The notes under the pieces are model-generated. The model searched no databases, was not told the origin of the DNA, and saw nothing but the letters and a program-made list of their open reading frames with translations. Shown piece by piece: positions 16,477 through 61,455 of a DNA stretch of 64,000 bases. Source of the DNA: Chloroflexota bacterium (GTDB lineage Bacteria > Chloroflexota > Dehalococcoidia > UBA2247 > JAUWOP01); NCBI GenBank assembly GCA_030612045.1, contig JAUWOP010000002.1, positions 5,894-69,893 on the forward strand, given 5' to 3'. The number at the start of each line of letters is the position of its first letter. Positions within the stretch are counted from its first letter, which is position 1. Both the position numbers and the translations under genes were made by a program.

Positions 16477-16494
16477 ATGAGCGGTAGAACTCTG

Positions 16495-17311: not shown

Positions 17312-17331
17312 TTAAATCAAGGGCTAAGGGA

Positions 17332-17405: not shown

Positions 17406-17410
17406 CTAGA

Positions 17411-17483: not shown

Positions 17484-17501
17484 CTTACTCACATAAGGAA
17501 T

Positions 17502-20910: not shown

Positions 20911-21045
20911 GTTTATAGAGTTCATTGGGTTCATTACGAGCCTTTCCCCTTTGTCATTGCGAGCGAAGCGAAGCAATCTCAGTGGGGGGAGGGGCGATGA
21001 GATTGCTTCGTCGCTAGCGCTCCTCGCAACGACATGGGGATGATG
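20855..21045. repeat. repeat cluster: family D, family C and one GTCATTGCGAG hairpin unit
   Basis: See the family descriptions above. 20941-21030 is a single A-type hairpin. Confidence 0.8.
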
Positions 21046-29406: not shown

Positions 29407-29879
29407 TAGCCACTATTTCCCCTCAAACTTTGATCTATATACTCAACTTTCAAAAACACACCATTAAGGTGGTCAAAATCATGGTCTGTTGTTAAAAGCA
29501 AAGCGTTAATCACCGAACCTGTAGCAGCAATCCATATATCATTCTTACCCATATTTCGTGAAGATACCCCTTGAAGTAGTTTTTTTGAGGGATGTTTGCC
29601 CTGGCTATACGCATCAATTTCTGCATACTTCTCCAATATCTGATGGTCACCAATGTCAGCGAAAGGGATTTTTCCTAAGATGTCCCCGATCTTTCGCTTT
29701 TTTTCTTCACTCCACCCAAATTGTAGAGATACAGAATAGATTTCCCCAACTGTTACCACAGAAATAAGTGCAATATTGGGTGGCATGGATACCCCAAAAC
29801 GCTTCTCTACATACTCGGCGTAGCCTGCCCCTCGCACATAGCCCAGAATGATGCCCGTATCTAGGAGGTAAGTAGTCAT
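29406..29879 (-). CDS. PIN-domain nuclease (VapC-like)
   Basis: LLDTGIIL at the N-terminus and LLTTDHDF near the C-terminus give the PIN acidic residues. 157 aa. Confidence 0.7.
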   Translation of the reverse strand: MTTYLLDTGIILGYVRGAGYAEYVEKRFGVSMPPNIALISVVTVGEIYSVSLQFGWSEEKKRKIGDILGKIPFADIGDHQILEKYAEIDAYSQGKHPSKKLLQGVSSRNMGKNDIWIAATGSVINALLLTTDHDFDHLNGVFLKVEYIDQSLRGNSG

Positions 29880-30835
29880 AAGGTTTCTACGGATGCCTGC
29901 CTCAATACAGAAAGAATTTCGTCAATTGATTCTTCTCCTGGCCACTGTCCCCAAATCTCCGTCAGCGGGCTTTTGGTGCCTTGCTTTCTTTTCAATTCCT
30001 CGATTAACCTGTGAGGTGACTTTGATTCCGTAATATTCTGGAATATCTCCTCTCCAACCTCAAATGGTTTGATTATTTGTGCTTCAATAAAGCGCACCTT
30101 ACGGGAGGCATTGAAGTGAGCCGTCCCTTTAATCGTGACCTTCTTCCCCCAGAGACCTCTCATTTTCCCCTCTGTAATTAAGGGTGAGTCTGCCCTCCCA
30201 CGTACCTTTTGACCGTCTTCTAACTCAAGTTGGAACTGCCTCCGAGCATGTTCAATCAAATCGAATAAACCTGCAACGACAATAGCGTGAGACTGCGGTG
30301 TTTCTGTCTCCATGTGGCTTATCTTCTCTAACTCTTCGCGCCCTATCTTGAAATTATCCCTTTCCCTGATCTTGGAATTTACCTCAAGCTCACTCATGTA
30401 TTTCTTAAGAGGAGATCTGAAAGAGAGCAGAGCGTTTAACACTCCTCGGTCATAGTATTCGCTTTCCAATTGCTCGGAGGTTGCATCTGATACTGACCTG
30501 GAAAGCAAGGACATCGCAGTATCTTCCGGATTGGGCAGTGTATACCAAAGGGTCTGCTGCTGAACCTGTTCGGGGGCTGATTCTGCCAAAGTCGGCGCTT
30601 CAATCTCCAGTACTGTTGAGCCTTTACTGATTCCGGCAATCGTGAATTCAAGGGATTTACTTAACCATTCTGGATTCTTTCCTCTTTTCACGCTCCTGCC
30701 TTCGATCGAAAGGCGTAGTGCTCGTTCGCATCCCTGCAAAAGTGTATCAGAGATATCCCTGAGAGCTCTCAGGGGGATAGTGCCTTCTGGCGTTTTAAGC
30801 CCGGTAATTCTAATCGTGTAATGGATGCCGTTCAC
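29876..30835 (-). CDS. hypothetical protein (319 aa), immediately upstream of and overlapping the PIN gene
   Basis: Long ORF with good codon usage and no recognisable motif. Overlaps the PIN ORF by 4 nt (29876-29879). Confidence 0.5.
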   Translation of the reverse strand: MNGIHYTIRITGLKTPEGTIPLRALRDISDTLLQGCERALRLSIEGRSVKRGKNPEWLSKSLEFTIAGISKGSTVLEIEAPTLAESAPEQVQQQTLWYTLPNPEDTAMSLLSRSVSDATSEQLESEYYDRGVLNALLSFRSPLKKYMSELEVNSKIRERDNFKIGREELEKISHMETETPQSHAIVVAGLFDLIEHARRQFQLELEDGQKVRGRADSPLITEGKMRGLWGKKVTIKGTAHFNASRKVRFIEAQIIKPFEVGEEIFQNITESKSPHRLIEELKRKQGTKSPLTEIWGQWPGEESIDEILSVLRQASVETL

Positions 30836-30902
30836 TTTCTGCCACCCCCTCTTTATTCTACCCTAACTCACAGTGCCTGTCCCCTTTTTGCCTTCTCCTC
30901 CC

Positions 30903-31015
30903 TTGTGATCGTTCACCTGTGTCATTGCGAGCGAAGCGAAGCAATCTCGTTCTCCCCTTACCGAGATTGCTTCGTCGCTACGCTCCTCGCAATGACATGA
31001 GAGCGGGTGAACGGT
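30903..31015. repeat. A-type hairpin unit with outer CGTTCACC...GGTGAACG inverted flanks
   Basis: It overlaps the 3' end of hsdS and supplies its last residues (...MSLRGA) and stop codon. Confidence 0.8.
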
Positions 31016-32495
31016 TACCCTCCCTTATCCTTTCCAGCAGCTTGTCAGCAGGTTCGTCGCTGGGGTCTTGAGGAACCAGTTTACCCTCAAAGGCTCTCTT
31101 TAGAATACTCTGGCGCAATCTTACCGACTGCTTGAGGCTCTGGTCAACGGCTTTTCCTATCTCATCAGCTACCGAAAGGCGGCGCTCGATTTCCTCAACG
31201 ATTTTGTGTTGTTCGGTGAATGAGGATAATGGAAGTGGAAGGATTCGCAGGTGTTCGAGAGGAATGAACTTCTGTGTCGTTCCCTTCGAAAGTTTCCCCT
31301 TTTCCAATATCTCATTGAATGTCCAGCTTGCCAACCAAAACTTGAGGTATTTTGACCTGAGAAAGGATTGATTCTTCTTAAATAACCCCACGTTTTTAAT
31401 ACTAAAGAGCCTGTCTGTCTGAACTACTACAGGATTTCCCACCGTTCCTATCATTGCAAAGAGTATGTCCCCATTCTCAACCCCAGAACGTACACTAATT
31501 TTTTTGTGGTCTTCGATGCTAATATTCTTGGTCGTTGTGAAGTCTAAGCCATCTTCTTTGAGGTTTTTTGATGTCACCAACGGGATTCCCTCTTCAACAT
31601 ACCTAGGGGTATCGTGTGTACCATCTCTTACAGAAGAACAAACATCACTTGTTATCGTCCACACCCACCCCTCTGGCAAATCGGGCAAATCGGATGTATC
31701 CAATGACGGAAGTTCTTTGTATTTGCCCTGGGCATTTTTTGGGTGTTCTCTCTTGATGCGCTCCAGGAGCGCGGAGGCGGGCTCCAGTTCTCCCTTGTGG
31801 TCCTCTCGCCACTCCTGCGTCAGTTTTCCCTGGAAGGCATCCCTCAAAACTGCCTGGCGGTAGCGTTTTAACTGAGCCTTTATTTTCTTCAGCGCCGCTA
31901 CCCCGGCATCCAGCCTGGTGAAAAGCCCCTCAATCCTGGCAACGATGCGGTGCTGCTCAGGGAGGGGCGGGAGAGGGATGGGAATTTGGTGCATATAATG
32001 AACTGGCACCCTTAATTGACCTGCAGAGCCTGTCATATTTCTTTGGGCATCCCTTCTGAGGTCTTCTCGTATCAAAAAGAAGAAGAGCAACTTCCTTGGA
32101 AATGATTCAGGCAATCTGATAACATGGAACTCAGTTGAACCGAAACCGATACCGTTTTTCAAACCATGAGCTATTGCCACTTTCCCGTTTTCCATACAAG
32201 GTGTAATTTTGGCAAAAAGTAAGTCACCCTCTATGAATGGTGTATACCCTTTTTTTACTTCTGATAATCTCCTCGTAAAGAATAAATTGAGATGTCCTGT
32301 TAATTCCTCAACGCATTTCATCGGTAGAAATGCAACTTCTGTGTCGTCTGTGAGATATTCGCCTGTAAATTTCGGATTGATTTCTGCAATCTCCCCCAAC
32401 CTCATCCACACCCACCCCTTAGGCAATTGACGAGTGTTCACTCCTTCATCTCCTACGCTGCTAGCTCTTGAATATGTTCGTCCCGGCAACTCCAC
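30978..32495 (-). CDS. hsdS: type I restriction-modification system specificity subunit
   Basis: Two target-recognition domains, each followed by a conserved PLPPLPEQHRIV / LPLPLSSFTEQHKIV coiled-coil repeat. The true start may be the internal MRLGEIAEI (~32405). Confidence 0.85.
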   Translation of the reverse strand: MELPGRTYSRASSVGDEGVNTRQLPKGWVWMRLGEIAEINPKFTGEYLTDDTEVAFLPMKCVEELTGHLNLFFTRRLSEVKKGYTPFIEGDLLFAKITPCMENGKVAIAHGLKNGIGFGSTEFHVIRLPESFPRKLLFFFLIREDLRRDAQRNMTGSAGQLRVPVHYMHQIPIPLPPLPEQHRIVARIEGLFTRLDAGVAALKKIKAQLKRYRQAVLRDAFQGKLTQEWREDHKGELEPASALLERIKREHPKNAQGKYKELPSLDTSDLPDLPEGWVWTITSDVCSSVRDGTHDTPRYVEEGIPLVTSKNLKEDGLDFTTTKNISIEDHKKISVRSGVENGDILFAMIGTVGNPVVVQTDRLFSIKNVGLFKKNQSFLRSKYLKFWLASWTFNEILEKGKLSKGTTQKFIPLEHLRILPLPLSSFTEQHKIVEEIERRLSVADEIGKAVDQSLKQSVRLRQSILKRAFEGKLVPQDPSDEPADKLLERIREGNRSPALMSLRGA

Positions 32496-33220
32496 AGGAT
32501 ATCTTTCACATCATATCGACGAAGGGCATTGATAAGGTCTGGATTTAACGGGCGTTCGGTATCATTTAGGACCGCATAGGCAGTAGATTCGGGCAGTCTT
32601 ACCTTTTTGGTATCAGTCCATGCAAAGATAAGCGTTGTGATACTCTGACGGTCAGGCCGATTAATGGCTCTGAGTACTCTTTCAGGTTTTACACGGGAGG
32701 CAGGAATTACGAAGTCGAAAGAATTGTCCAAGCCGCTTTTTCCGGTGAATTTGACTGAAGGGGTAAAGCGAATATCATGGGCACGCAGATATGTCTCAAC
32801 ATCTTCTCGAAAAATACTCATCACCATTGGGGCAGCCATCACAAAGAGGTCATTTATTGCGAGCATGGCTTGAATCAGGTTGTGTTTCTTCTGCGGAAAG
32901 TTATCAGGGCGTGCCTCTACAATAAGCTCCTCACCCTGAAGACGAACTCCAAAGCCATTTAAAACAGCATTAAGCATCTGCCGTCTCTTCTCCGTCGTGA
33001 ACTCACATCCACTCAAGCGGAGGTCTCGGATAATGTAGCCATCGTCTGTGAGGGTAAATCCCTCTTTAGACCGCTTGATATATATCTGTAGATAGTCATT
33101 GTGACGGTCAACAAAGGGAGTGGTAATCTCACAAACACCATCTATATCCTGAATACTCATCTTTTGACCAAGCCATCTAATATAGACTTGAACAAGATCA
33201 CTGCACTCATTTGAAATCAT
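32453..33220 (-). CDS. hypothetical protein (255 aa) embedded between hsdR and hsdS
   Basis: ORF with no recognisable catalytic motif. Its start overlaps the upstream ORF stop (ATGA, 33217-33220). Confidence 0.5.
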   Translation of the reverse strand: MISNECSDLVQVYIRWLGQKMSIQDIDGVCEITTPFVDRHNDYLQIYIKRSKEGFTLTDDGYIIRDLRLSGCEFTTEKRRQMLNAVLNGFGVRLQGEELIVEARPDNFPQKKHNLIQAMLAINDLFVMAAPMVMSIFREDVETYLRAHDIRFTPSVKFTGKSGLDNSFDFVIPASRVKPERVLRAINRPDRQSITTLIFAWTDTKKVRLPESTAYAVLNDTERPLNPDLINALRRYDVKDILWSCRDEHIQELAA

Positions 33221-33714
33221 AGCAACCTCCTTTGAATCAAAGGCTGTTCAATAACATTACAAAATCGAAAGAAGTCCTCAAGAGTTGAAAACAGATCGTT
33301 TGTTTGGGGGAACTTATTGCTTGGTGCTGGAATTGCCCACTTATCCATAAATCCTTCCACATATAAGTGAAGATGAGGGGTTGGTAAGGTGACACCATTA
33401 TAAGGTTCGAGGAAAGAAAGTGGCACTGCCTCAACTTCTGGATTCGGGTGAGGGGAACCATCTACATCCAACCGCACAAGGATGAATGTGCCTTGATACC
33501 GTTCTTGATATGAGCATTTTGTCAGTCGAATTTGACCTCTGTTTACATCTATTAGGAAAGTCTCTATCTCATCAGTTGAAACAATGGGAATGACTAAAGA
33601 GCTCCCTGGGTAGGGGAAGAAATAGTTCTCGTTTCTGGCTCTTTTTTTTGGCATCTTTATTAAGAAATCTGCTTCACTCTGCGAAGGCATTCTGCTCCTT
33701 CCTAATTTGCTCAA
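33217..33714 (-). CDS. hypothetical protein (165 aa) embedded between hsdR and hsdS
   Basis: ORF starting 7 nt after the hsdR stop, translationally coupled to the next ORF. Confidence 0.45.
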   Translation of the reverse strand: MSKLGRSRMPSQSEADFLIKMPKKRARNENYFFPYPGSSLVIPIVSTDEIETFLIDVNRGQIRLTKCSYQERYQGTFILVRLDVDGSPHPNPEVEAVPLSFLEPYNGVTLPTPHLHLYVEGFMDKWAIPAPSNKFPQTNDLFSTLEDFFRFCNVIEQPLIQRRLL

Positions 33715-33720
33715 TTTGCT

Positions 33721-36468
33721 TCATGCTACCAGCACCTTATTCAGCTCTTCTAGAATACTGTCCAGCTCATGTTCGAAGAGATTGTATGCCTTTATTGCTC
33801 CACCCTTCCCAGCAAATGGCGTAAGCTCAAAGTGGTCTATGCTGATGCTTAAAGAAGCAGCGATGTGGTATTTTATCATCTCCAGCCACTCCATCTGCTC
33901 TGGGGTAAATTCTCGTCCTAAGCTCGCCTGCTCGGAAATCCATTCATTGAATCGCTTATCTACTGTCTCAGAGAAGGGTTCCAGCACATCAGTTTCCCCT
34001 ACAGCAAAGCGTATGAGTGAGATGATATTGGTTAGGAGTTTCTGGGTTCCAGCGTCCCTGACCTTGGAGCTCTCCAAATGTTCATAAGCCTGCCACAATA
34101 GCTCAGGTGTAAGATTATAAGGTGGCTTTTTGATAGCACTGGCAAGCTGCTTTATCTCCTGGTAGGTCAAACGGCGCTTGCTGTAAGGCTTACTATAAAT
34201 CACCTGCAAAGCGGTAAGCTCGTCCTTGTTCTCCTCTATGAATTTGTGAAAGGTATCAACGATGGTTCGAGCCTTTTCTTTCGCCTGAGCATCAAAGCCA
34301 GCAAAAATTAGCTTGTCCTGACTCACGGTATCAATAACCTGCTCACTTTCTCTCTTGAGGTCAATGAGCATATCACGCAGTTTAGGATTATCAAAGGGAC
34401 TGCAAGCAATTGTAGTCAGTTCATTACTAGCTTTCTTAACCTGTTCCTCTGTGGGTGCTTCTGTGTTGAAGAGCTCTTTCGCCTTATCTATTTGCTTGTC
34501 CGGGTCAACGGCGTCCAGCAAGCTATTGGTGAGCTGTTTTGGAGATATACCCCCTGTGGCACTTTGGATTTGCTGGCGGTCTTCTTCCTCAATCTCCTTA
34601 TCCAGTTGAGCGAGTCTTCCTGCCAGAGAAGTGAGCATGTCCTCATCTCTATTACCCAGAGCAACGGACATAAGCAGCTTATCGAAGGGGAGACTCTTGT
34701 TCCTTTCCAGAGGTTGGGAGTCTTGTTTCTCATTCTCGCACACGCCGACGGCATCCACGATTACGAAATTTGTCTTGTGAGATGCATCCGGGGTAACGGC
34801 GTTAAAATCCGTGGGCAGGATTGTCCTGCTGCCGCGTCCTTTCATCTGCTCAAACAGCAGCCGAGATTTAACATCTCTCATAAAGATGATGCACTCCAGA
34901 GGTCTAATATCGGTCCCGGTAGCAATCATATCCACTGTCACCGCGATGCGGGGATGATACGAGTTACGAAAGCTGGTAATCAGGTCCTCGGGCTTCTCGG
35001 TCTTGTAGGTTATCTTCTTACAGAGTTCATTTCCCTTACCGAATTCCTCCCTCACAATATGGACAATATCCTCAGCATGGGAATCGCTCTTGGCAAAGAT
35101 TAGGGTTTTGGGGACCTCAGTCCTGCCGGGGAATATCTCGGTAAAGAGTTTCTCCTTGAAGGTTTTGACCACTGTTCTTATCTGGTCTGGAGCAACTATG
35201 CTGCGGTCGAGTTGCTCTGGGGGGTAATCGAGAGCCTCATCCAACTGCTCCCAGCGGATTTGCCTGGTGAGCTTGTTTCGCTTATCTATATAATAGTCTG
35301 CTTTTATGGTGCTTCCCTCTTTGGTAATCTTTGTCTGGATGAGGTAAACATCGTAGCCTACATTAACGCCATCTGCCACAGCCCGCTCGTGGCTGTATTC
35401 CATAACCAGGTTCTGATTGAAAAAGCCCAGGGTTTGCTTTGATGGAGTTGCGGTGAGTCCGATAATAAAGGCATCAAAATACTCCAGCACCTGACGCCAG
35501 AGGTGATATATTGAGCGGTGACATTCATCGGTGATGATGAAGTCAAAGGTCTCAATGGGGATAGCGGGGTTATAGGAGATTTCTTTCGGTGGAAGAACTC
35601 CCAGTGGCATGCTGGGGAGAGACTGTTCCTCAAGCTCGGCATCAAAGTCTGGCTCTCCCTTGAGCATGGAATAGAGCCGCTGTATGGTGGTGATACAAAC
35701 TCGACTTACTGGGTCCAGGGTATTAGAGGTAACATGCTGGATATTATAGAGCTCAGTAAATTTCCTGCCGTCATCGGGTGTATCATATTGCTGGAACTCC
35801 CTTCTTGTTTGGCGGCCCAGGTTACTCCTATCAACAAGGAAGAGAACCCTTTTAGCATTGGCGAACTTTATCAGACGGTAAACAGAGCTCACGGCGGCAT
35901 AGGTCTTACCAGTTCCCGAGGTCATCTGGATAAGCGCTCGCGGCCTTTCCCCTGCAAAGGATTCCTCAAGATTTCCAATCGCCTCAATTTGGCAATCCCT
36001 CAATCTGTCAGTTTTTAGCGGAGGCATAGTTTTGAGTCTGGCTCTGAGAGTGTCCTGCTGAGTTAGCCATTCATTAAGCGTTTCGGGACGATGAAAGCTA
36101 AACACCCTTCGAGAGCGGGGTGCTGGGTCTCTTAAATCTCTGAAGGAGGTTTCTGTGCCTGTGCTCTCATAAACAAAGTGAAGAGGCTCCTGGACATGGG
36201 GGAGATTTTCAGGGGAAGCTGTTGAGTATTTTCCAGACTGTTCAGCTACACCACTTAAGGTAGTACCGACTGGTTTAGCCTCCACAACCCCAACAGCTTT
36301 TCTGTCAACAAAAAGGACATAATCAGCCGTTCCAGATTTCAGGGGAAATTCACGGACGGCTACTCCTGGAGAAGCTCCGAGATTCAGTTGCCGCAGGTCC
36401 TGAACAGCCCAACCGGCAGTCTCCAGCATCTGGTCAATCCTTTGTCTTGCCTTTTCCTCTGGTTTCAT
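33721..36468 (-). CDS. hsdR: type I restriction enzyme R subunit (helicase-nuclease)
   Basis: N-terminal nuclease domain, SF2 helicase motifs MTSGTGKT (Walker A) and DECHRS (DEAH), and a C-terminal domain. 915 aa. Confidence 0.9.
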   Translation of the reverse strand: MKPEEKARQRIDQMLETAGWAVQDLRQLNLGASPGVAVREFPLKSGTADYVLFVDRKAVGVVEAKPVGTTLSGVAEQSGKYSTASPENLPHVQEPLHFVYESTGTETSFRDLRDPAPRSRRVFSFHRPETLNEWLTQQDTLRARLKTMPPLKTDRLRDCQIEAIGNLEESFAGERPRALIQMTSGTGKTYAAVSSVYRLIKFANAKRVLFLVDRSNLGRQTRREFQQYDTPDDGRKFTELYNIQHVTSNTLDPVSRVCITTIQRLYSMLKGEPDFDAELEEQSLPSMPLGVLPPKEISYNPAIPIETFDFIITDECHRSIYHLWRQVLEYFDAFIIGLTATPSKQTLGFFNQNLVMEYSHERAVADGVNVGYDVYLIQTKITKEGSTIKADYYIDKRNKLTRQIRWEQLDEALDYPPEQLDRSIVAPDQIRTVVKTFKEKLFTEIFPGRTEVPKTLIFAKSDSHAEDIVHIVREEFGKGNELCKKITYKTEKPEDLITSFRNSYHPRIAVTVDMIATGTDIRPLECIIFMRDVKSRLLFEQMKGRGSRTILPTDFNAVTPDASHKTNFVIVDAVGVCENEKQDSQPLERNKSLPFDKLLMSVALGNRDEDMLTSLAGRLAQLDKEIEEEDRQQIQSATGGISPKQLTNSLLDAVDPDKQIDKAKELFNTEAPTEEQVKKASNELTTIACSPFDNPKLRDMLIDLKRESEQVIDTVSQDKLIFAGFDAQAKEKARTIVDTFHKFIEENKDELTALQVIYSKPYSKRRLTYQEIKQLASAIKKPPYNLTPELLWQAYEHLESSKVRDAGTQKLLTNIISLIRFAVGETDVLEPFSETVDKRFNEWISEQASLGREFTPEQMEWLEMIKYHIAASLSISIDHFELTPFAGKGGAIKAYNLFEHELDSILEELNKVLVA

Positions 36469-43029: not shown

Positions 43030-43206
43030 TTTTGGTAAGTAGTGTAGTGTAATCGTAATAACTATACAGTTTGTCATTCCGTGCTTGACACGGAATCCAT
43101 CCCCTAGACCTTCTGGATTCCTGCTGGAGTTTACCCCGTACTTGATACGGGGCAGGAATGACATGGGGTACCCTATTGTCAGGTCATTTAAGAGACACTG
43201 CACTAG
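43030..43206. repeat. MITE-like family-B element (second full copy with TIRs TAGTGTAGTG / CACTGCACTAG)
   Basis: Identical flanks and core to 12601-12750, plus an extra internal hairpin CCCCGTActtgaTACGGGG. Confidence 0.8.
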
Positions 43207-43217
43207 AATATTTGAGT

Positions 43218-45155
43218 TCAGTCGTATATAGTTTCGCATTCTAGAAGTGCCACAGGAATGCCTATTCCCCTCTCTATTTCCAGGTAAACCTTGCCTGTAA
43301 TGTCTCTTCCCCAGTCACCCAGACTAAATGGCGAGGAGGGAATCACTATCAAATCAGGAGTCCATTCCCCCTCAACATACTCCTTCAAATAGTCAATAAA
43401 GTCTTGCACTACCAGTAAGTCACCCATAAATATGTTTCCACCAAAGAATCTATTGGGCGGCACCTCTACACGGAGGTCAACACCGCCAAAAAGTGGAGAA
43501 ATGGCAAGGGACTGTTCGAGGACTGGTCTCACCAGTTGGGAAGAAAGTAGCAGCACCTTTTTCGTAGTACTGGCATAAGCATTATGAGATATGCTTTTTA
43601 TCCCGGAAAGACTAATAACACCCTTGAGCTTCTCCAGAGTACCCACCCGGAATCCCATGCCCATAAAGATAATCCCAAAGTGGTGGTCTATCTCTAGTGA
43701 ATAGGGATAGGAGAACTGGCCTGGGTTCAGACCTAATTGTAAAACATCTGCATTCCTTTGAACCTCGAGAATAACCCCTTGCTCTGAACCCCGTTGCACT
43801 GCTCGAAGCAGGTCACGCCCTTGCGGTCGATTAGAAACAGGTATTCCATTCAACTTTAGAAGCAGGTCACCCTTCCTTAGACCAGAGTATGCCGCAGGGG
43901 AGTTCTTTACCAGTCCAATAGCTCGGGGTAGATTCTTGGTTTGCTCATAGAGATTCTCTTCATACATCTCAGGCATTACTACAATAGGACACTCAGTCTT
44001 CTCTCTTAATTCCCGCACCAGTGAAACTATCGCTGCCCACACCTCTTCTCTATCGAAGAGTTTCTCTTTCACCACACTTACTCTGGTAGAGAAGAACTGC
44101 GTGTAGCCAGGCAGGTTAATCTCTACAAGGTGGGCACTATGCTTATCAGCATAAGCTACTGTCTCTGTAATATCATTCAGCATCTCATCTAGCATAGATG
44201 CTGGAGAAAGAGAATGTAGTGGCCAGGGAACAATTACCACCGCATAGGGGATTTCTCTATCACTAAGGTGATGGGGAGCACTCAGGGCTACCATAGAGTT
44301 ACTAGCATGCATCAGCTTCTGTCGACGCTGCAAAGATGCACTATTCAAGGAAAGATAGATATAGATAGGCTTCAATTTTGCTAGAGCTTTGATAACATCC
44401 GTGGTAAGGTTTTCACCATTAGTAGCTATTCTGAATGGTAAGGGGGTTTTTTCACGCAATGAGGGCAATATATCCATAGAGTAGGGATGAGCTAAAACTT
44501 CATGTATGCCTCCCAGAGTAGGGAAAAGGCAGCGCCTTGCAGAAGGGGAAAAGTACTTTACCCGTGTCAGTGCTTCCTGGTATTCCTCCTCAACTGACCT
44601 ATGAGGGTGAATTAGAGAAACAGAGGGTGGATTCCCCTTCAGATAACAGAACTCACAATTACAGTTACATCTTGTGGCGAGATGTTCAAACACCTCAGCA
44701 GGGTCACCACCGGAGCTTACCAGCCAATCCTGAAGATTCTTCAACCGAAACTCATCCACCTCTACTCTTTTACCATTCTTTTCTAATTCTACTACTGATA
44801 GAAGGCTCTCCAGTTGCTGTTTAATAAGAACTATTCGTGGTTCGTACAAGGAAGCATTCTGAATACACTGTGGGCAGAGATTTGAGACCGAGGCTGCTTC
44901 TCCTTCATTTTCTGTTTGCTGTCTCTCTCTTTGGGGAAATACCTCATACGCTATATCTTGCTGATTCAGTAGCTTGAAGCCATCAATCTTTACTTCCTTC
45001 CCTTGCTGGAGCGGGATGAGAAGGTCAAGAAGAGACGCTAATTGCAACCGTATCATCTCGGTAAGTCGGTCGTGATAGAAGCCCTCCCTATCCTGATTCA
45101 GAGCCAGCGGGTAGCGGAATACATAATCACCCGAATCATTATCTTTTGGAGACAC
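43218..45155 (-). CDS. radical SAM protein with C-terminal PDZ domain (DUF512-like), 645 aa
   Basis: CNCNCEFC is a CxxxCxxC motif. The PDZ-like region is GLVKNSPAAYSGLRKGDLLLKLNG. There is an extra N-terminal domain. Confidence 0.6.
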   Translation of the reverse strand: MSPKDNDSGDYVFRYPLALNQDREGFYHDRLTEMIRLQLASLLDLLIPLQQGKEVKIDGFKLLNQQDIAYEVFPQRERQQTENEGEAASVSNLCPQCIQNASLYEPRIVLIKQQLESLLSVVELEKNGKRVEVDEFRLKNLQDWLVSSGGDPAEVFEHLATRCNCNCEFCYLKGNPPSVSLIHPHRSVEEEYQEALTRVKYFSPSARRCLFPTLGGIHEVLAHPYSMDILPSLREKTPLPFRIATNGENLTTDVIKALAKLKPIYIYLSLNSASLQRRQKLMHASNSMVALSAPHHLSDREIPYAVVIVPWPLHSLSPASMLDEMLNDITETVAYADKHSAHLVEINLPGYTQFFSTRVSVVKEKLFDREEVWAAIVSLVRELREKTECPIVVMPEMYEENLYEQTKNLPRAIGLVKNSPAAYSGLRKGDLLLKLNGIPVSNRPQGRDLLRAVQRGSEQGVILEVQRNADVLQLGLNPGQFSYPYSLEIDHHFGIIFMGMGFRVGTLEKLKGVISLSGIKSISHNAYASTTKKVLLLSSQLVRPVLEQSLAISPLFGGVDLRVEVPPNRFFGGNIFMGDLLVVQDFIDYLKEYVEGEWTPDLIVIPSSPFSLGDWGRDITGKVYLEIERGIGIPVALLECETIYD

Positions 45156-52611: not shown

Positions 52612-52760
52612 TATTGGTAACTACTCAGCCACAGAGGACACCGAGGTCATATAAAGGTTCTTTTAATGTGACTACTCAGGTTATTAGGTTCATGGTTCAC
52701 GGTTACTGGGTTCAACTCTGAACCTTGAACTCGGGAACTGTGAACCTGTGTAGTTACGCA
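52612..52760. repeat. intergenic family-D/C-related repeat cluster (GTAACTACTCAGCCACAGAGGACACCGAGG...)
   Basis: Sequence similarity to 6660-6840 and 20855-20900. Confidence 0.6.
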
Positions 52761-54995: not shown

Positions 54996-55305
54996 TGTAT
55001 ATACTTGGCTCAAGGTTTCAACTTACTGCAGGTTAGAGGTCGATCTATTGAGCGAGCGCAAGAGTTCCTTTCGATATCTGAGAACTCAATTAAGCTCTAG
55101 TTGAATGGGAGAAGGTGTATAATACCATCCGATTTCATCAAGCATTGGTATACTTCACACCAAGGGAGTTTCTGGAATGCTATCAACAAAATCGGAGAAA
55201 GGAGGTGATGTGTCACTGATGTATTGAACAAGCACAGAGGTTGTTTATTCTCACTAGAATATGGTATTATCCCACGAAGTTTAAGCCATCGAATAAGGAG
55301 GTAAA

Positions 55306-55737
55306 ATGTTTTGTGGTAAGTGTGGCGCTGAGAACCCTGAAGGCACTACCTTTTGTCAGAAGTGTGGAGCTGTTTTGACCCCCTCTACTCCAAGTGGTGA
55401 GGCTAAGCCTACTGGATTACAACCAAATGTGGCTGGGCTACTTTGCTATGTAGTGGGCTGGATAACTGGATTGATATTCTTCCTTATGGAGAAGGAGGAC
55501 CAGTTCGTCCGCTTCCATGCTATGCAGTCTATAGTCACCTTTGGTGGTCTTACCGTAATCAGCATCGTGTTCTCTATACTCGGGTTAATCCCTTATGTAG
55601 GTCTCATATTTGGGGTATTACAGATACTTGTGGGTATCCTGGGGTTTGTCCTCTGGATACTGCTGATGGTCAAGGCGTATCAGGGCCAGAGATACAAGCT
55701 TCCTTGGGTTGGCAACTTTGCTGAAAAGTATATCTAG
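55306..55737 (+). CDS. zinc-ribbon + DUF4870-like membrane protein
   Basis: MFCGKCGAENPEGTTFCQKCG zinc ribbon followed by three TM helices. Confidence 0.6.
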   Translation: MFCGKCGAENPEGTTFCQKCGAVLTPSTPSGEAKPTGLQPNVAGLLCYVVGWITGLIFFLMEKEDQFVRFHAMQSIVTFGGLTVISIVFSILGLIPYVGLIFGVLQILVGILGFVLWILLMVKAYQGQRYKLPWVGNFAEKYI

Positions 55738-55825
55738 GAAAGTGCCCCAAAATGCCAGCCGTGCCAATTTGGAGGTAGTACCTCTAGTAATTATCTGGGG
55801 GTTTCATCGATAGAAAGGAGGTAAA

Positions 55826-56218
55826 ATGTTTTGTGGTAAGTGTGGCGCCGAGAATCCTGAAGATGCAGCCTTTTGTGGTAAGTGTGGAGCTGACCTGGCC
55901 TCACCTGCCCCGAGTGAGCCCATGTCCGCCAGGGAAAGTACCGTGATGCAGCCAATGGAAGAGCGCAAAGCGATGGTGAGCTTCCAACTTTCTGTTGGAC
56001 CTATTCTCAGGTACCTGGCTTATGCGGCAGCAGGGTGTTTTGTGATTGCTGGCATCTGCTCCGCTGCCCAATCTGGTCACTTCAACGGAGCTATTAGGGC
56101 TAGCTGGCTTTTTGTTTATTTCGGTCAGGCAGCTTTTTATGGTGGCTTACTATATGCCTTTTCATACCTGGTGCCCTGGCTTCTTGAGCTCAAAAGGGCT
56201 GAGGGGAAGACAGAATAG
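55826..56218 (+). CDS. zinc-ribbon membrane protein, paralog of 55306-55737
   Basis: Identical N-terminus MFCGKCGAENPE and an identical 5' region including the RBS (gaaaggaggtaaaATGttttgtggtaagtgtggcgc). Confidence 0.6.
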   Translation: MFCGKCGAENPEDAAFCGKCGADLASPAPSEPMSARESTVMQPMEERKAMVSFQLSVGPILRYLAYAAAGCFVIAGICSAAQSGHFNGAIRASWLFVYFGQAAFYGGLLYAFSYLVPWLLELKRAEGKTE

Positions 56219-56326
56219 GAGAAGGCTGTTCTCAGGTAAGCACCTTTTAGAAGGCTGTTGACACAGCTAAATTAGGTTATTCTGATTATAGCATCTTGCA
56301 AAAATAACCGTATTATGTCATTGCGA

Positions 56327-56395
56327 GGAGCGCTAGCGAGATTGCTTCGCTTTGCTCGCAATGACAACCTATTTTCATGATTCGTCGGTGAGCAG
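56327..56395. repeat. A-type hairpin + linker module in inverted orientation
   Basis: GTCATTGCGAGgagcgctagcGAGATTGCTTCGctttgCTCGCAATGAC, then CCTATTTTCATG (reverse complement of CCATGAAAATAGG). Confidence 0.8.
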
Positions 56396-56446
56396 TTACA
56401 CATGGGGATTTGCTATCTTAATTCTTATTCTCGCGAGGAGATTTCC

Positions 56447-56935
56447 ATGGTAGAGCCACTGGAGCAGATTTTCGCTTCGTGTAAAGTTGAAAGGAAAGAG
56501 CTTATTCCCTTACTACAGGAAATTCAGGAAAAGCTGGGCTATCTCTCTGATGATGCCATGAAGGCTGCTGCCGAATTTCTGCATATTCCTCCGAGTGCTG
56601 TCTATGGAGTGGCTACCTTCTATAACCAGTTCCGTTTTGTTCCTGCGGGGAAACATCCCCTGAAGATCTGCCTGGGGACTGCCTGTCACATACAGGGGAG
56701 CAAGCTCATTATGGAAGCTATGGAGCGAGAGTTGGATATTAAGGCGGGGAATGTTACCCCTGACCATGAGTTCAGCCTGGATAGGGTTGCCTGTGTGGGG
56801 TGCTGCGCTCTGGCTCCAGTAATAATAGACAAAAAGACAGTCTACCCCCGGATGACCCCCTTCAAGGTAGAGGAGGTGCTGGCTCTTCTCAAGGAAGAAA
56901 ATGCCCATGGGCGGTTGCCCACCAACGAACCATGA
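56447..56935 (+). CDS. NuoE-like thioredoxin-fold [2Fe-2S] ferredoxin subunit (NADH dehydrogenase 24 kDa / HoxF-HydC type)
   Basis: The four Cys (C..C...C..C: CLGTACHIQG...CVGCCALAP) of the NuoE family. The C-terminal tail HGRLPTNEP and the stop codon are supplied by the repeat linker module. Confidence 0.8.
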   Translation: MVEPLEQIFASCKVERKELIPLLQEIQEKLGYLSDDAMKAAAEFLHIPPSAVYGVATFYNQFRFVPAGKHPLKICLGTACHIQGSKLIMEAMERELDIKAGNVTPDHEFSLDRVACVGCCALAPVIIDKKTVYPRMTPFKVEEVLALLKEENAHGRLPTNEP

Positions 56936-57240
56936 AAATAGGCTGTCATTGCGAGCGAAGCGAAGCAATCTCGGTGGGGCGGCGATGAGATTGCTTCGTC
57001 GCTACGCTCCTCGCAATGACACATTATGGGGGCGTGCCTCGCAATGACAAATGTGGGGTCAGTCTATTTTCGGAATAAACACTCATGGGCGGCTGCCCAC
57101 CAACGAACCATGAAAATAGTGCTTCCTTGCAACGACTTTGCCTGTCATTCCTGCGGAAGCAGGAATCCATGTGGGGTGGGTGTAGATTCCCGCCTGCGCG
57201 GGAATGACATAGTCTATTTTCGAAGCAAAGAGTGTGAATC
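56902..57240. repeat. 340-bp repeat array: linker, nested A-type hairpin unit, linker (CTATTTTCGGAATAAACACTCATGGGCGGCTGCCCACCAACGAACCATGAAAATAG), B-type two-hairpin unit, linker
   Basis: Same module order (in a different arrangement) as 61195-61455. Confidence 0.85.
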
Positions 57241-57243
57241 AGG

Positions 57244-59136
57244 GTGACCTTTGAAGAGATTCAGCACCATGCCATGGCGGAGTGGGAAGCCCTCCATGCA
57301 GGTGAGATACCGTGTGTCCGTATTGGTACGGCTACTTGTGGTAGAGCAGCCGGTGCACTATCAATAGCTCACATCTTTGCCACAGAGATTGAAAGGCGGG
57401 GTATTGAGGCTGCTCTCCTGCAGGTAGGCTGTTTAGGGCTATGTTATGCTGAGCCTATCGTGGTGATAAGCAAGCCAGGGATGCCCCTAATTTGTTACTC
57501 TAATGTAACCCCGGAGATTGCCCTACGGTTGATAACAGACTACCTTGAAGATGATGACCCCTGCCTCGACCTGGCAATGGGGACACTGGAGGGTGGTGGT
57601 GAGGAGCTCCTTTATATCCCTGAGCTCACCCGGTTTGAGTATGAACAGCACTTTCTCCTGAAACGGTGTGGATATATAGACCCACTAAACATCAATCACT
57701 ATATTGCTACCGGCGGTTACCATTGTTTGAATAAGATGTTACAAACTCCTCCTCATGTAATAATTGATGAGATAGAGCGTTCCGGACTCAGGGGGAGGGG
57801 CGGGGCAGGATTCCCTACTGGTCTGAAGTGGCGGCTGTGTCATGATGCCGTTAACCTTCTCAGATATATAGTATGTAATGCTGACGAAGGAGACCCCGGT
57901 GCCTTTGTGGACCGCGTCATCCTGGAGAGTGACCCTCATGCCATCCTGGAAGGGCTACTTATTGGCGCCCATGCAGTAGGTGCCTCCAGGGGTTATGTTT
58001 ATTGCCGCTCAGAGTATCCTCTGGCTCTGCAGTGCCTTCACCATGCTGTTACCCAGATGAAAGATTATGGACTTCTGGGCAACCACATTCTGGGTTCAGA
58101 TTTCAATTTTCACCTTGAGATAGTTGAGGGCGCAGGAGCATTCGTGTGTGGTGAGGAGACGGCGCTTCTGGCTTCTATCGAAGGTAGACGTGGTATGCCA
58201 CGCCCTCGTCCTCCCTATCCTGTCGAGTCTGGCTTATGGAACAAGCCTACACTGGTTAATAATGTAAAAACCTTTGCTTGTATTCCTCTCATACTCGACT
58301 ATGGTGCTGACTGGTTTACCAGTATTGGGACAGAAAGAAGCAAAGGGACACAGGTATTCGCCTTAACAGGTAAGGTGAGACACACCGGATTGGCAGAGGT
58401 GCCAATGGGCACGACTCTCCACCAACTGATATATGACATTGGTGGCGGGATACAAGGAGACAAGACATTCAAGGCAGTCCAGATAGGGGGACCCTCAGGG
58501 GGATGCCTTCCTGCAGGGTTATTGCATACCCCAATAGATTTTGATTCCCTTGTTAATGTAGGTGCTATGATGGGTTCGGGTGGGATAGTAGCGATGGATG
58601 AAACCAGCTGTATGGTAGATATTGCCCGTTACCTTCTCGATTTTATTCAGAAGGAATCCTGTGGAAAGTGCTCTCTATGCCGCCTGGGGACCAGACAAAT
58701 GCTTCAGATATTAGAGGATATTGTGAGTGGGAAGGGTAAGGAAGGAGATATTGAGCTACTTACCAATCTTGCCGAGGATATTCAGGTGGGTTCTCTCTGT
58801 GGGCTGGGTAAGACAGCACCTAACACTGTTCTTACTACCCTGCGTTACTTCCGAGAGGAATATGAAGCCCATATTCGAGAGAAATGCTGCCCAGCACTAG
58901 TATGCAAAGACCTTATCGCCTACTATATCCTGCCTGAGAGGTGTAGTGGCGCCTGCGACCATTGTGTAGTTACTTGCTCTACCAAGGCAATCAGTAGCAA
59001 TGAAGTAGGAGTAAAGGTTATTGACCAGAGCAAGTGTGTCAAGTGCGGGACATGCCTTGAAGTCTGTCCTCTAGAGTACAGTGCAGTAATTAAGGTATCA
59101 CCTCCTGACTCTATACCAGAAGCGGGACAGAGATAG
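57244..59136 (+). CDS. NuoF-like NAD(P)H-binding flavoprotein subunit with N-terminal thioredoxin-like [2Fe-2S] domain and C-terminal 2x[4Fe-4S] ferredoxin domain (HndC/HoxF/FdhB type)
   Basis: GRGGAGFPTGLKW FMN site, a C-x2-C-x2-C-x3-C soluble-ligand cluster, and C-terminal CxxCxxCxxxCP x2. Confidence 0.85.
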   Translation: MTFEEIQHHAMAEWEALHAGEIPCVRIGTATCGRAAGALSIAHIFATEIERRGIEAALLQVGCLGLCYAEPIVVISKPGMPLICYSNVTPEIALRLITDYLEDDDPCLDLAMGTLEGGGEELLYIPELTRFEYEQHFLLKRCGYIDPLNINHYIATGGYHCLNKMLQTPPHVIIDEIERSGLRGRGGAGFPTGLKWRLCHDAVNLLRYIVCNADEGDPGAFVDRVILESDPHAILEGLLIGAHAVGASRGYVYCRSEYPLALQCLHHAVTQMKDYGLLGNHILGSDFNFHLEIVEGAGAFVCGEETALLASIEGRRGMPRPRPPYPVESGLWNKPTLVNNVKTFACIPLILDYGADWFTSIGTERSKGTQVFALTGKVRHTGLAEVPMGTTLHQLIYDIGGGIQGDKTFKAVQIGGPSGGCLPAGLLHTPIDFDSLVNVGAMMGSGGIVAMDETSCMVDIARYLLDFIQKESCGKCSLCRLGTRQMLQILEDIVSGKGKEGDIELLTNLAEDIQVGSLCGLGKTAPNTVLTTLRYFREEYEAHIREKCCPALVCKDLIAYYILPERCSGACDHCVVTCSTKAISSNEVGVKVIDQSKCVKCGTCLEVCPLEYSAVIKVSPPDSIPEAGQR

Positions 59137-59206: not shown

Positions 59207-59968
59207 GTGGAAGCTGAACTTGTTACCCTGACCATTGATGATATCAAGGTTAAAGCTAAGAAGGGAATCAAGGTCCTGGATGCTGCCCTGGGAGCCGGTA
59301 TCTACATCCCTCACCTCTGTTACCTGCCTGAGGCTGAGGTTCCTCTTGCCTCCTGCCGTCTATGTTATGTGGAAATTGAGGGAAGGGGGATGGTTACTGC
59401 CTGTACCGAGCTAGTAGCTGAGGGGATAGTGGTGCATACTCACAATCCCCGGATTGATAGGCTGCGTCATACCACGATGAGGCTTATCCTTGCTAACCAC
59501 CCCATTGATTGTAGCTCCTGCCCTAGAAACAGAGATTGTGAACTTCAGAGGATTGCTGCCTACCTTCATATAAAGCTGGGAAATCCTTCTGGGTCCCCTT
59601 CCCTAAAGGGGGATTTAGGGGGATTTAGGGAAATGCCTCTCCGTGACCTTCCTATAGATGACAGCCATTCCCTGTTTATCTACGACCCCAATAAGTGTGT
59701 TCTCTGTGGTAAGTGTGTGATGATTTGTAATGAGCGTATGGGAGTAGGCGTTCTTAACTTTATCTTCCGTGGCTATAATACCAGGGTTGGCACCTTCAGG
59801 GAGATACCGTGGGGAGAAGCAGGGTGTATTTCTTGTGGAGCATGTGTAGCTGCCTGTCCTGTAGGCGCCCTGGTTCCTAAGAATATCAAGGTACTCTCCT
59901 TTACAACATCACCAGGTTGTTACGATGCACCACTTCATCACCATATTCATAGCCCAGGAGATCGGTAA
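59207..59968 (+). CDS. NuoG N-terminal-like iron-sulfur protein ([2Fe-2S] + [4Fe-4S] domains only, 253 aa)
   Basis: CRLCYVE...TAC 2Fe-2S motif, HPIDCSSCPRNRDCELQ, CVLCGKCVMIC and CISCGACVAACP. No downstream catalytic domain. The 3' end overlaps convergent proB by ~68 nt. Confidence 0.7.
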   Translation: MEAELVTLTIDDIKVKAKKGIKVLDAALGAGIYIPHLCYLPEAEVPLASCRLCYVEIEGRGMVTACTELVAEGIVVHTHNPRIDRLRHTTMRLILANHPIDCSSCPRNRDCELQRIAAYLHIKLGNPSGSPSLKGDLGGFREMPLRDLPIDDSHSLFIYDPNKCVLCGKCVMICNERMGVGVLNFIFRGYNTRVGTFREIPWGEAGCISCGACVAACPVGALVPKNIKVLSFTTSPGCYDAPLHHHIHSPGDR

Positions 59969-61123
59969 TCCTATTGGAGTGAGTCCCTTTAATTATATCA
60001 ATATCAGCCGAGCTATAGTTAGATATACCATGAGCAATAGAGTTCCCTTCAGGGTCAACAATATTGACTATATCCCCTCGCTGAAAATTCCCTCTTACTG
60101 CCTTTATGCCAGCGGGTAATAAACTGCCCCTCTCTTTGAGTGCCTGGGCAGCTCCAGTATCAATAAGGATTTCTCCTTTTTCGTAACGCTTCCGTTTATA
60201 TCCCAACCCACTTAGCATCCACCGCTTGCGACTCTCCAGTTGTGTAGTGATGGGAAGGAAACGGGTTCCTATCTGTTCTCCCTTTATGAGGCGAGGAATA
60301 ATTTCAGGGGTTCGCCCATCAGCAATAACTGTCATAACTCCTGAACTGGTAGCTAATCTGGCTGCTTCTACCTTGGTGACCATGCCACCAATGCCACGCT
60401 GTGAGAGGGTATCCCCGGCTAGCTGCTCAATGTGGCTGTCTATTCTCTCCACTACGGGTATGAGTTGAACTTCAGAATCAAGGTGAGGGTCAGCAGTGTA
60501 GAGTCCACCCACATCACTGAGGAGTACTAGTAAGTCAGCATCTACCAGATTTGCTACCATGGCTGAAAGGTTGTCATTATCACCAAATTTAGCTTCCCTA
60601 ATCTCATCGATAGCCACAACATCATTCTCATTTACTATAGGTAATACTCTGAGTTCCAATAGTCCCAGGAGGGTGTTACGCGCATTAAGGTAGCCAGCAC
60701 GGTCAGACATATCATTTTTGGTAAGCAGTGCCTGGGCTATAGTAATATTATGCCAGGAGAAGAGTTGCTCATAGGCATGCATCAGGCAGTTCTGCCCCAC
60801 TGCAGCCAGAACCTGTTTTTTCGTAGTGCTTGCACCTTTTCGTAGTGCTTGCACCTTTTTACGGTACTCACACTGGCAGCCTCATGCTCTTGAATGAGAC
60901 CAAGCTTGTGTCTACCTGCAGCAATTGCCCCTGAGGAAACGAGGACTATTTCTGCCCCCTGGCGATGCATTCGGGCTATTTGACCTACAAGGCTAGACAT
61001 TATCCCCAACTCGAGGTAATCGCCACCCCCAGTTATCAGATTAGCTCCTAGCTTTACCACCGCACGGTGATGATAAATATTTTCTATTTCGCCCATTCCA
61101 GTATTATATATCCTGAGTAACAA
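59901..61123 (-). pseudogene. proB: glutamate 5-kinase interrupted by a tandem 2x19-bp insertion (frameshift)
   Basis: ORF 60782-61123 encodes the ProB N-terminus (AVVKLGANLITGG...VLVSSGAIAAGRHKLGL). ORF 59901-60854 encodes the rest (KKQVLAAVGQ...PUA domain). The two are joined at a tandem duplication of cgtagtgcttgcacctttt (60822-60859). Confidence 0.75.
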
Positions 61124-61194: not shown

Positions 61195-61455
61195 ACCCAT
61201 TGTCATTCCTGCGGAAGCAGGAATCCAGGTAAGGCAGGTGTAGATTCCCGCGTAGGCGGGAATGACATATTCTATTTTCGAAGCAAACACTCATGGGCGG
61301 CTGCCCACCAACGAACCATGAAAATAGCCTGTCATTGCGAGCCTTTCCCCTCTGTTATTGCGAGCGAAGCGAAGCAATCTCGGTGGGGTAGAAGAGATTG
61401 CTTCGTCGCCATGCTCCTCGCAAAGACACATCGAGAATCTATTTTCGGAATAAAT
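61195..61455. repeat. repeat array: B-type two-hairpin unit, linker, nested A-type unit, linker
   Basis: 61201-61267 matches 57145-57215. 61327-61425 matches 56941-57050. Confidence 0.85.

Follow-up and report, generated by a model that had tools for sequence, protein, structure and literature searches.

The 64-kb stretch analysed here (in the following, the window), part of a metagenome-assembled Chloroflexota contig with a guanine-cytosine content of ~47-48%, contains 13 clusters of repeated sequence, which emerged from a self-comparison of the window. At least six of its genes, namely those for a NuoE-like protein, TatD, HsdS, a large membrane protein, a TPR protein and a CoA-transferase, end in stop codons that are supplied by or embedded in such repeats. 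The original prediction, made from the sequence of the window, held that repeat modules donate C-terminal residues and stop codons to the first four of these genes: all four cases are present in the sequence, and we found two more. Gene content was set from open reading frames (ORFs), Pfam matches and public gene calls. The closest named relatives of TatD (P0001) and NuoE (P0121) are encoded in Chloroflexota/Dehalococcoidia metagenome-assembled genomes (MAGs; ~57-66% identity), and both proteins recur with 100% identity on contigs from the European Nucleotide Archive (ENA) samples ERZ4220937 and ERZ4219663 as well as on one NCBI contig.

Repeat insertions replaced the C-termini of NuoE and HsdS

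In nuoE and hsdS, the insertions, their boundaries and duplications as well as the replaced tails can be read directly from the DNA, so that the state before and after a repeat took the place of a protein C-terminus can be reconstructed exactly in both genes. The features concerned are the following (nt, nucleotides; aa, amino acids; strand given where assigned; the repeat units L, A and B are described further below):

56447-56935, plus strand: nuoE-like gene (2Fe-2S thioredoxin-like), real start at 56447 (public call P0121, 162 aa)
56902-57229, plus strand: composite repeat array of 328 nt inside nuoE, with an empty site in contig L002
First half of the array: L 56906-56940; A hairpin pair 56944-57021; outer arm 57022-57049; tail and junction TCTATTTTCGGAATAAA 57063-57079
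Second half of the array: L 57084-57118; B hairpin pair 57143-57209; tail and junction TCTATTTTCGAAGCAAA 57213-57229
57228-57254, plus strand: relic of the native NuoE tail, KSVNQGDL and stop, out of frame and untranslated, overlapping the nuoF start region (GTG 57244)
~56297-56412, minus strand: ~116-nt repeat insertion in the nuoE 5' untranslated region (UTR), with a short A hairpin pair (56316-56366) and a degenerate reverse L (56371-56407)
30905-31018: miniature inverted-repeat element of 114 nt in hsdS, with an A hairpin pair (A unit 30920-30997) and the ends GTGATCGTTCACC and GGTGAACGGTTAC
30868-30896, minus strand: relic of the native HsdS tail, (E)KAKRGQAL and stop, downstream of the element, as deduced from the reconstruction

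The Pfam domain of NuoE stops at residue 163 of the 177-aa ORF, which ends in ...KEENAHGRLPTNEP (also ...EENAHGRLPTNEP) with the stop at 56935, inside the first L copy, as the original prediction had read it from the linker. The repeat encodes the final 10 aa and the stop (56903-56935), and the junction codon is changed from K to N; AHGRLPTNEP and VTTQPTIDSHREHEK are examples of such element-encoded tail peptides in the window. The homolog P0122, which shares 89% aa identity with NuoE, ends in ...LLKEEKSVNQGDF (tail KSVNQGDF and stop). Its 758-nt contig, L002, from ERZ23495241, aligns to the window at 91-92% nt identity in two segments, 213-692 with window 56422-56901 and 685-758 with window 57222-57295, which overlap by the 8 nt GAAGAAAA. 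The 328 nt of 56902-57229 therefore constitute an insertion, located 8 codons before the native nuoE stop, and their in-silico removal yields a 159-aa NuoE that is equal in length to P0122. The insertion point, GAAGAAAA, is thus found within the coding sequence, 24 nt upstream of the native stop, at a position where there is no terminator because nuoF follows directly. The array is flanked by this host 8-mer on the left and by GAAGCAAA on the right, which agree at 7/8 positions: An ordinary 8-bp duplication was considered for the pair and rejected, as GAAGCAAA belongs to the repeat unit elsewhere, repeat family D12 running through it at 61280-61287. The alignment further reveals that the relative on L002 is also free of the ~116-nt insertion in the nuoE 5' UTR. 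As NuoE tails vary among homologs, the replacement of the tail is probably tolerated.

In hsdS (30978-32495, minus strand), the protein ends in MSLRGA within an A unit, as had been predicted; the entire repeat-derived part, however, is NRSPALMSLRGA and comprises 12 aa rather than 6. These residues and the TAG stop (30978-30980) are provided by the 114-nt element, on either side of which the same 8 bp, CCTCCCTT, occur as a perfect direct repeat (30897-30904 and 31019-31026). Deleting the element together with one repeat copy in silico restores an HsdS of 501 aa that ends in ...ERIREEKAKRGQAL (...LLERIREEKAKRGQAL) and stop. HsdS homologs have ...PA(D/E)KLLERI(R/K) in common, followed by variable Lys/Arg-rich tails: The restored tail fits this pattern, whereas the present tail, GNRSPALMSLRGA and stop, does not. 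The insertion point, AAGGGAGG, lies 10 codons (30 nt) upstream of the native stop. The gene is part of a type I restriction-modification operon (27958-36468; hsdM, hsdS, hsdR) that is broken up by a PIN-domain gene, a 319-aa gene without Pfam match, DUF1828/DUF1829 and DUF6978, and that is followed by a divergent HTH/IrrE-like (Peptidase_M78) gene at 36958.

Because repeats are classic misassembly sites, one might ask whether the tails are assembly or annotation artefacts, originating from chimeric joins at repeats or wrong stop calls, all the more as the assemblies differ in two small places, at 12688 and 60818. Yet the nuoE array, the TatD end and the region up to the hsdS element are 99.9% identical on contigs from two samples and three assemblies, and the few differences spare the tail-encoding repeats; the nuoE array has the same sequence in assemblies from two ENA samples, and the 3' end of the membrane-protein gene including its repeat is 100% identical in a Logan assembly. 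Given this recurrence, the nuoE array and the end of the membrane-protein gene are not assembly artefacts. Moreover, chimeras do not yield duplications and relic tails in the correct frame, and we consider an artefact extremely improbable.

Family D at the ends of further genes

The remaining genes that end in repeats are mostly associated with a repeat family, termed family D, whose 12-nt terminus GTAACTACTCAG occurs in six exact copies in the window (0.01 expected). Its copies and associated elements, together with a hairpin of another type inside the membrane-protein gene, are:

20857-20931, plus strand: family-D element end at the TatD 3' end, with GTAACTACTCAG at 20857-20868, resembling the 6841 copy as far as 20895
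27808-27866, plus strand: family-D terminus (27808-27819) with which the membrane-protein gene ends; its identity to the 52617 copy extends over 18 nt
52617-52757: complete family-D element of 141 nt with inverted termini and the duplication ACATATTG/GCATATTG (7/8), 13 nt after the acyl-CoA dehydrogenase stop
6548-6841: facing family-D termini filling a convergent spacer; 4 nt separate the left end from the stop of the Na+/H+ exchanger gene, and the TPR stop TAA (6838-6840) is part of the right end
13924-14003: right half of a family-D-type element, with internal short repeats and terminus CTGAGTAGTTAC, directly after the LemA stop
24802-25073, plus strand: compound cluster, beginning 36 nt downstream of the preceding stop, that combines the end GTAATCGTTCACC and nested A hairpins with the tail TCTATTTTCAGAGCAAA and internal repeats of the D type
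25842-25869, plus strand: SRM/NTS-type hairpin TGTCATTCCCGCGAAGGCGGGAATCCAG and part of the B spacer, in frame within the coding sequence of the membrane protein

TatD (20059-20910) carries a 17-aa tail, VTTQPTIDSHREHEKGY, which begins at the D terminus and with which the protein ends in ...NNVTTQPTIDSHREHEKGY and stop. With 283 aa it exceeds the median of 264 aa in 119 homologs, which end in ...RLFRLPNS without a tail. The prediction that TatD ends in a family-D repeat therefore stands as far as the tail is concerned, but the excess is ~20 aa instead of 25, and the TGA stop (20908-20910) is not contained in the D-specific part: It belongs to the repeat block that follows, TGAGTTTATAGAGTT..., which recurs at 25004. 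Nested A-type hairpins come after the D end and reach to ~21036. A TatD homolog from another Chloroflexota-like genome, P0010 (303 aa; L091 1352-1380), passes the usual end ...RLPN by way of a single hairpin arm, TGTCATTCTGAGCGCAGCGAAGAATC, and reads ...SSCHSERSEESRGAQ..., an independent case of the same phenomenon within the TatD family.

The large membrane protein (ORF 25167-27866, membrane glycosyltransferase/glycosidase-like, 880-899 aa) reads the D terminus as GNYSATALTSNHSLQIDTY and stop. Its sole homolog, P0392 (43% identity), has its stop 4 aa after KFKA, where the repeat begins. Hence the ORF does read GTAACTACTCAG at 27808, in line with the original prediction of a D copy at its end, but only 18 nt (27808-25) are demonstrably repeat in the window, the remaining 41 nt of 27808-27866 not being repeated within it. 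As homology ends at GTAACTACTCAG and as this terminus is read in two different frames, as VTTQ... in TatD and as NYS... in the membrane protein, we are dealing with an element at the level of DNA and not with a protein motif. Close orthologs of the two proteins are missing from the database (best matches 58% and 43%), so that no empty sites are available there, and searches for the second end and the duplication of the two D copies returned only weak matches (6/12 and 6/8). Where orthologs without the repeat could be compared, for NuoE, TatD, HsdS and the membrane protein, the tails differ; a shared tail, which would contradict an origin from repeats, was not encountered.

The TPR gene (6838-8292, minus strand) stops at the TAA that forms positions 2-4 of the D terminus, and behind the LemA stop repeat sequence follows directly. 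The 6548-6841 pair is probably compound or rearranged because the flanking 8-mers do not match; a target duplication was likewise not found for the D copies at 20857, 27808 and 14003. Inside the membrane-protein gene, the in-frame hairpin at 25842-25869, which reads ...CHSREGGNPGGVG..., looks like an internal repeat insertion of the type known from the Rickettsia palindromic elements (RPEs).

To characterize family D beyond the window, we scanned other genomes, with one genome per species, for GTAACTACTCAG followed after 0-14 nt by CCACAGAG. This yielded 87 stretches, of which ~16 are estimated to occur by chance, in hosts that include Leptospiraceae, Candidatus Desantisbacteria, Fibrobacterota, Planctomycetota, Chloroflexota, Nitrospirota, Thermodesulfobacteriota and a Candidatus Syntrophoarchaeum MAG; in viral contigs, the pattern had no matches. 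GTAACTACTCAG followed by CACAGAG-type short repeats is seen in at least eight bacterial phyla and in Candidatus Syntrophoarchaeum (L004-L090; e.g., L026 7147-7230, L012 361-473, L061 6043), and many copies of GTAACTACTCAG are present in one Leptospiraceae MAG and in Desantisbacteria MAGs. Since the flanks are unrelated, the 12-mer represents the exact outer end of the element. Inverted pairs (GTAACTACTCAG/CTGAGTAGTTAC) were found 25 times in other genomes (non-redundant, 84-254 nt apart), and the flanking 8-mers match at 7/8 positions or more in 16 of the 25 pairs and perfectly in 10, which has a chance probability of ~7e-4 per pair. The duplications have an AT content of 84%, whereas the 300 nt around them reach 63%. 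These features identify family D as a miniature inverted-repeat transposable element (MITE) with an 8-bp AT-preferring target duplication: Terminal inverted repeats, a fixed 8-bp duplication and a short, non-coding, multi-copy body (141 nt in the window) are all present, and the hsdS element agrees with this in its inverted ends, its duplication (CCTCCCTT, 8/8) and its length of 114 nt. The MITE ends begin with GTAAC, in family D (GTAACTACTCAG) as well as in the A-carrying variant (GTRAYCGTTCACC), and the hsdS element resembles family D in both its GTAAC start and its 8-bp duplication.

None of the 87 loci has a transposase adjoining a single D terminus, the neighbours being host genes only. 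A stop-broken fragment of an IS256/Mutator transposase (15353-15721, PF00872 profile 105-219 of 379) in a degenerate region (15257-17228) is devoid of MITE-like ends and adjoins three tRNA genes (17228-17484). Ends of the insertion sequence (IS) family IS66 begin with GTAAGCG and are accompanied by 8-bp duplications (PMC11946415), whereby they resemble the present elements in the initial GTAA and in the length of the duplication. The match, however, extends over only 4-5 nt, the ends are shorter here, an IS66-type transposase (TnpC, TnpA/TnpB) was not found in the 64 kb and a further ~3 kb, and 8-bp duplications are also made by IS256, ISL3 and IS1595. Because no matching transposase was found, we regard IS66 as a lead and make no claim of membership.

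Hairpin units, the 145-nt element and L-shell arrays

Besides the MITEs, the window contains hairpin units and composite arrays, of which the following have not been listed above:

12603-12747: 145-nt inverted-repeat element with two SRM-type hairpins and the 11-nt ends TAGTGTAGTGT and ACACTACACTA, flanked by TA or CTAG
4554-4766, plus strand: L unit carrying nested A-type hairpins; located between the genes for an MFS transporter and a Na+/H+ exchanger, at distances of 138 nt from the preceding stop and 74 nt from the following start
61201-61454, plus strand: array in a divergent spacer, made up of a B hairpin pair, a tail, an L unit and A hairpins and ending 0-6 nt before the downstream hydrolase start

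Unit B is an inverted pair of hairpins of the form TGTCAT-stem-loop-stem-ATC (TGTCATTCCCGCG-N3/4-GCGGGAATC). The dRS3 pattern ATTCCC-N8-GGGAAT occurs at four sites in the window (0.00 expected), the published SRM pattern HGTCWY..RNCYNB is matched three times, each in unit B (0.24 expected), and of the 28 nt of the Neisseria NTS consensus, 27 are found in the copy at 12675-12702. The stems co-vary (TCCTGC/GCAGGA, TCCCGC/GCGGGA, TCCGTG/CACGGA) with GTCAT and ATC kept throughout. Unit A (TGTCATTGCGAG...GCAATC) keeps the GTCAT...ATC frame and fails the published SRM pattern. In their hairpin patterns and their mosaic intergenic arrays, the units thus resemble the dRS3/NTS, SRM and NIME repeats of Neisseria (PMC11893778), from which they differ by the Chloroflexota host, by the off-pattern unit A and in that no ssnA was seen in the window.

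SRM motifs are associated with small GIY-YIG Ssn nucleases in several bacteria and are cut by them as single-stranded DNA (PMC11893778); the nuclease gene, ssnA (~94 aa, cd10448), often has the motif at its flanks. Together with the co-varying stems, this match and the predicted folding of the array units at -50 to -73 kcal/mol would be expected if the arrays were kept for their usefulness at gene ends, in the manner of REP/BIME sequences: They might stabilize mRNA, uncouple nuoE from nuoF or serve as Ssn-type nuclease sites that modulate recombination, the tails being a tolerated cost. A crude six-frame motif scan of the window, however, detected no ssnA-like GIY-YIG ORF, the close relative on L002 functions without both nuoE insertions, and Rfam gave no match, which makes retention for such a function very unlikely in our view. 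In the Rfam searches, covering the window at the gathering threshold and the nuoE array in E-value mode, only tRNAs and sub-threshold noise were returned, so that the repeat units do not correspond to a described RNA family; a literature search with the repeat sequence strings matched unrelated primers only.

The CoA-transferase gene (11940-12605) ends with the TAG at the end of the 145-nt element. As the element sits inside this TAG and regenerates the stop, the protein is unchanged. A second copy of the element (43040-43208) ends 10 nt from the stop of gene 43218-45155. At window position 12688, the second hairpin of the first copy is longer by 23 nt in a different assembly of this organism (L001 2607-2632) and thereby acquires the loop variant of the second copy; this suggests copy-to-copy conversion or assembly collapse.

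The 35-nt L module is present in four copies with at most one mismatch, all on the plus strand (0.00 expected). Together with a conserved tail it forms a unit that we refer to as L-shell, composed in order of CAC(T)CATG, a GGGC-N4-GCCC hairpin, the single-stranded stretch ACCAACGAACCAT, the closing stem GAAAATAG/CTATTTTC, which encloses variable SRM-type hairpins as cargo, and finally GRAAKMAAA. L-shell units have no inverted ends and are arranged head to tail with the internal junctions GAAGCAAA or GGAATAAA. The ATG at 61454, considered as a start codon donated by the 61201-61454 array, was dropped: The public call starts at ATG 61460, and the array merely abuts the start. Searches with the L pattern gave no match in genome contigs or viral contigs and one in metagenome contigs, namely in L003, a Joint Genome Institute (JGI) metagenome contig from another organism. 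There, an L-shell at 3680-3816 upstream of a gene start has kept the hairpin at its left end and carries other cargo hairpins, and an A-type palindrome with permuted arms is located at 4010-4080 (GAGATTGC...CTCGCAATGAC, then GTCGTTGCGAG...GCAATCTC).

The mosaic arrays of palindromes with conserved linkers (4554-4766, 56902-57229, 61201-61454), mostly situated after gene ends, are reminiscent of the REP/BIME sequences of E. coli and their RAYT transposases. They differ from these in lacking a GTAG-type signature and in the head-to-tail instead of alternating arrangement of the units, and a RAYT/Y1 (TnpA) domain was not found among the window genes; the array units may work like REP/BIME, and we do not claim membership. 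A further likeness concerns palindrome-associated elements derived from IS200/IS605: The L-shell is free of inverted ends, has a subterminal hairpin and lies 3' of a sequence like its own 3' end, which recalls single-strand HUH transposition. This one verified site, in nuoE, suggests that L-shells may insert 3' of a specific short sequence, as IS200/IS605- or IS91-type elements do. That the L-shell represents an undescribed site-specific module without inverted repeats, which inserts directly behind an 8-mer that corresponds to its 3' end and thereby builds head-to-tail arrays, is a tentative idea that we rate as rather unlikely. The module might be mobilized by an enzyme acting on single strands, be it an HUH transposase or a GIY-YIG nuclease of the Ssn type. 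If this reading is true, it would provide a carrier by which the widespread NTS/SRM hairpins are dispersed.

Position of the insertions and their probable origin

Repeats occupy 4/5 convergent, 8/39 tandem and 1/6 divergent spacers of the window, the convergent excess having a hypergeometric p of ~0.013. Tandem spacers that are free of repeats have a median length of ~47 nt, and in 9/31 of them the genes overlap; with spacers as short as these, any tolerated insertion falls within a few tens of nt of a stop. Clusters away from 3' ends exist at 4554, in the nuoE 5' UTR and at 61201-61454. At family-D ends in other genomes, the nearest gene is oriented tail-on in 60 cases and head-on in 50. Of the tail-facing genes, 33/60 lie within 20 nt of the D end or overlap it, compared with 3/50 head-facing genes within 20 nt; this distance is as expected if promoter and ribosome-binding regions must be preserved. 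ORFs of at least 100 codons cross 14/112 family-D ends: Nine stop at the TAA of the terminus and one at position 1, while the other four run on for 27-71 nt and acquire tails such as VTTQVNRL or GNYSVWFATEAQRHRE, each followed by the stop. The immediate stop in 10/14 cases, where one third is expected with random frames (binomial p ~0.004), suggests selection for short tails.

These observations are best explained, and in our judgement quite probably so, by colonization of the window by several families of small non-autonomous mobile repeats, of which the survivors are found in short spacers or last codons, their clustering at 3' ends resulting from the short spacers and purifying selection and not from targeting of stops. 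The families would be the following: (i) cut-and-paste MITEs with GTAAC ends and an 8-bp target duplication; (ii) the 145-nt inverted-repeat element with TA or CTAG flanks; (iii) NTS/dRS3/SRM-type hairpin pairs, i.e., units A and B; and (iv) L-shell units, the 3' end of which resembles the host 8-mer that directly precedes the point of entry at nuoE. Because native spacers are very short, surviving insertions would be confined to spacers or to dispensable final codons. If an element enters a few codons before the stop, translation would continue into the element up to the first in-frame stop, whereby residues encoded by the element would take the place of the native tail, the sequence of which would persist downstream as a relic that is no longer translated. 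We infer that selection acts together with a simple sequence preference for AT-rich or purine-rich 8-mers, without recognition of stops or terminators.

Several points weigh against this explanation. The sample is small, with 13 clusters in 64 kb; an empty site is available for comparison in one place only, the nuoE 3' array; and the D copies of TatD, the membrane protein and the TPR gene have no identifiable second end or duplication, so that the native stops cannot be reconstructed there. No autonomous transposase with matching ends was found in the window. In addition, 5/6 D termini in the window overlap a stop or lie at most 13 nt from one, as opposed to 33/110 elsewhere, and an extra local bias is therefore possible. 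Finally, the AT-rich 8-mers serving as targets often contain TAA or TAG. The latter point would also be accounted for if the elements actively target stop-codon or terminator contexts, a target preference that the original prediction had suggested; the transposition machinery would then recognize a feature of gene 3' ends. In favour of this, six genes in 64 kb run into repeats, the D terminus carries a TAA at positions 2-4, one element lies exactly within a TAG stop, and most convergent spacers are occupied. This proposal was not supported, however, as the insertion points in nuoE and hsdS are ordinary 8-mers without a stop triplet, 24 and 30 nt upstream of the stops, one insertion is located inside an operon where there is no terminator, others are found in a 5' UTR and beside a start codon, and neighbours elsewhere face the elements head-on nearly as often as tail-on. 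Nor did a terminator/promoter consensus scan of the 46-64 kb stretch find terminator-like sites enriched (17 versus 14.7 expected). We thus regard active targeting as unlikely and favour the selective survival of small mobile repeats.

Repeats that overlap the last codons and occasionally extend the C-terminus are an already documented side effect of such elements. In Coxiella burnetii, the last 1-50 bp of functional genes coincide with QMITE1 or QMITE2 copies, one of which provides EnhC with a tail of 33 aa (PMC5896051). They are like the present elements in being small and numerous, with inverted ends, direct target duplications, overlap of 3' codons and occasional extensions (PMC5896051). 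Their sequences and phylum are different, and here two native tails are exactly reconstructable and GTAACTACTCAG is common to many phyla. In enterobacteria, small mobile sequences are also reported inside genes. RPEs are internal, in-frame insertions behind which the protein is read on. They share with our cases that repeat DNA has turned coding, the hairpin at 25842-25869 being the closest parallel; the 3'-end cases differ in that they terminate inside the element and discard the native tail.

The current understanding that small repeats accumulate where they are least harmful is unchanged. For annotation, the result means that NuoE, TatD, HsdS, the membrane glycosyltransferase and other proteins carry foreign tails of 10-19 aa which should not be taken for conserved features, and the same cause accounts for similar tails in unrelated genomes (VTTQ..., GNYS..., CHSER...). 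Less usual are three leads: the sharing of an identical D terminus by many phyla, including an archaeal genome, the extension of NTS/SRM-type hairpins to Chloroflexota, and the apparently site-specific, array-forming insertion of the L-shell.

Three minor observations concern other genes of the window. The only repeat-free convergent pair consists of ORFs 59207-59968 (NuoG-like N-terminal Fe-S protein, 253 aa) and 59901-60854, which overlap by 68 nt at their 3' ends. The second of these ORFs belongs to a glutamate 5-kinase gene (AA_kinase and PUA) that is split by a frameshift in the window, into ORFs 59901-60854 and 60782-61123: At window position 60818 (L092/L093 14372-14390), the window has two copies of a tandemly repeated 19-nt unit, TTTTCGTAGTGCTTGCACC, where two ENA assemblies have three, and with three copies the gene forms a 404-aa ORF. 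Lastly, the adjacent genes 55306-55737 and 55826-56218, both encoding zinc-ribbon membrane proteins, are 80% identical over a 102-nt 5' segment (55295-55396 and 55815-55916), which suggests a local gene duplication.

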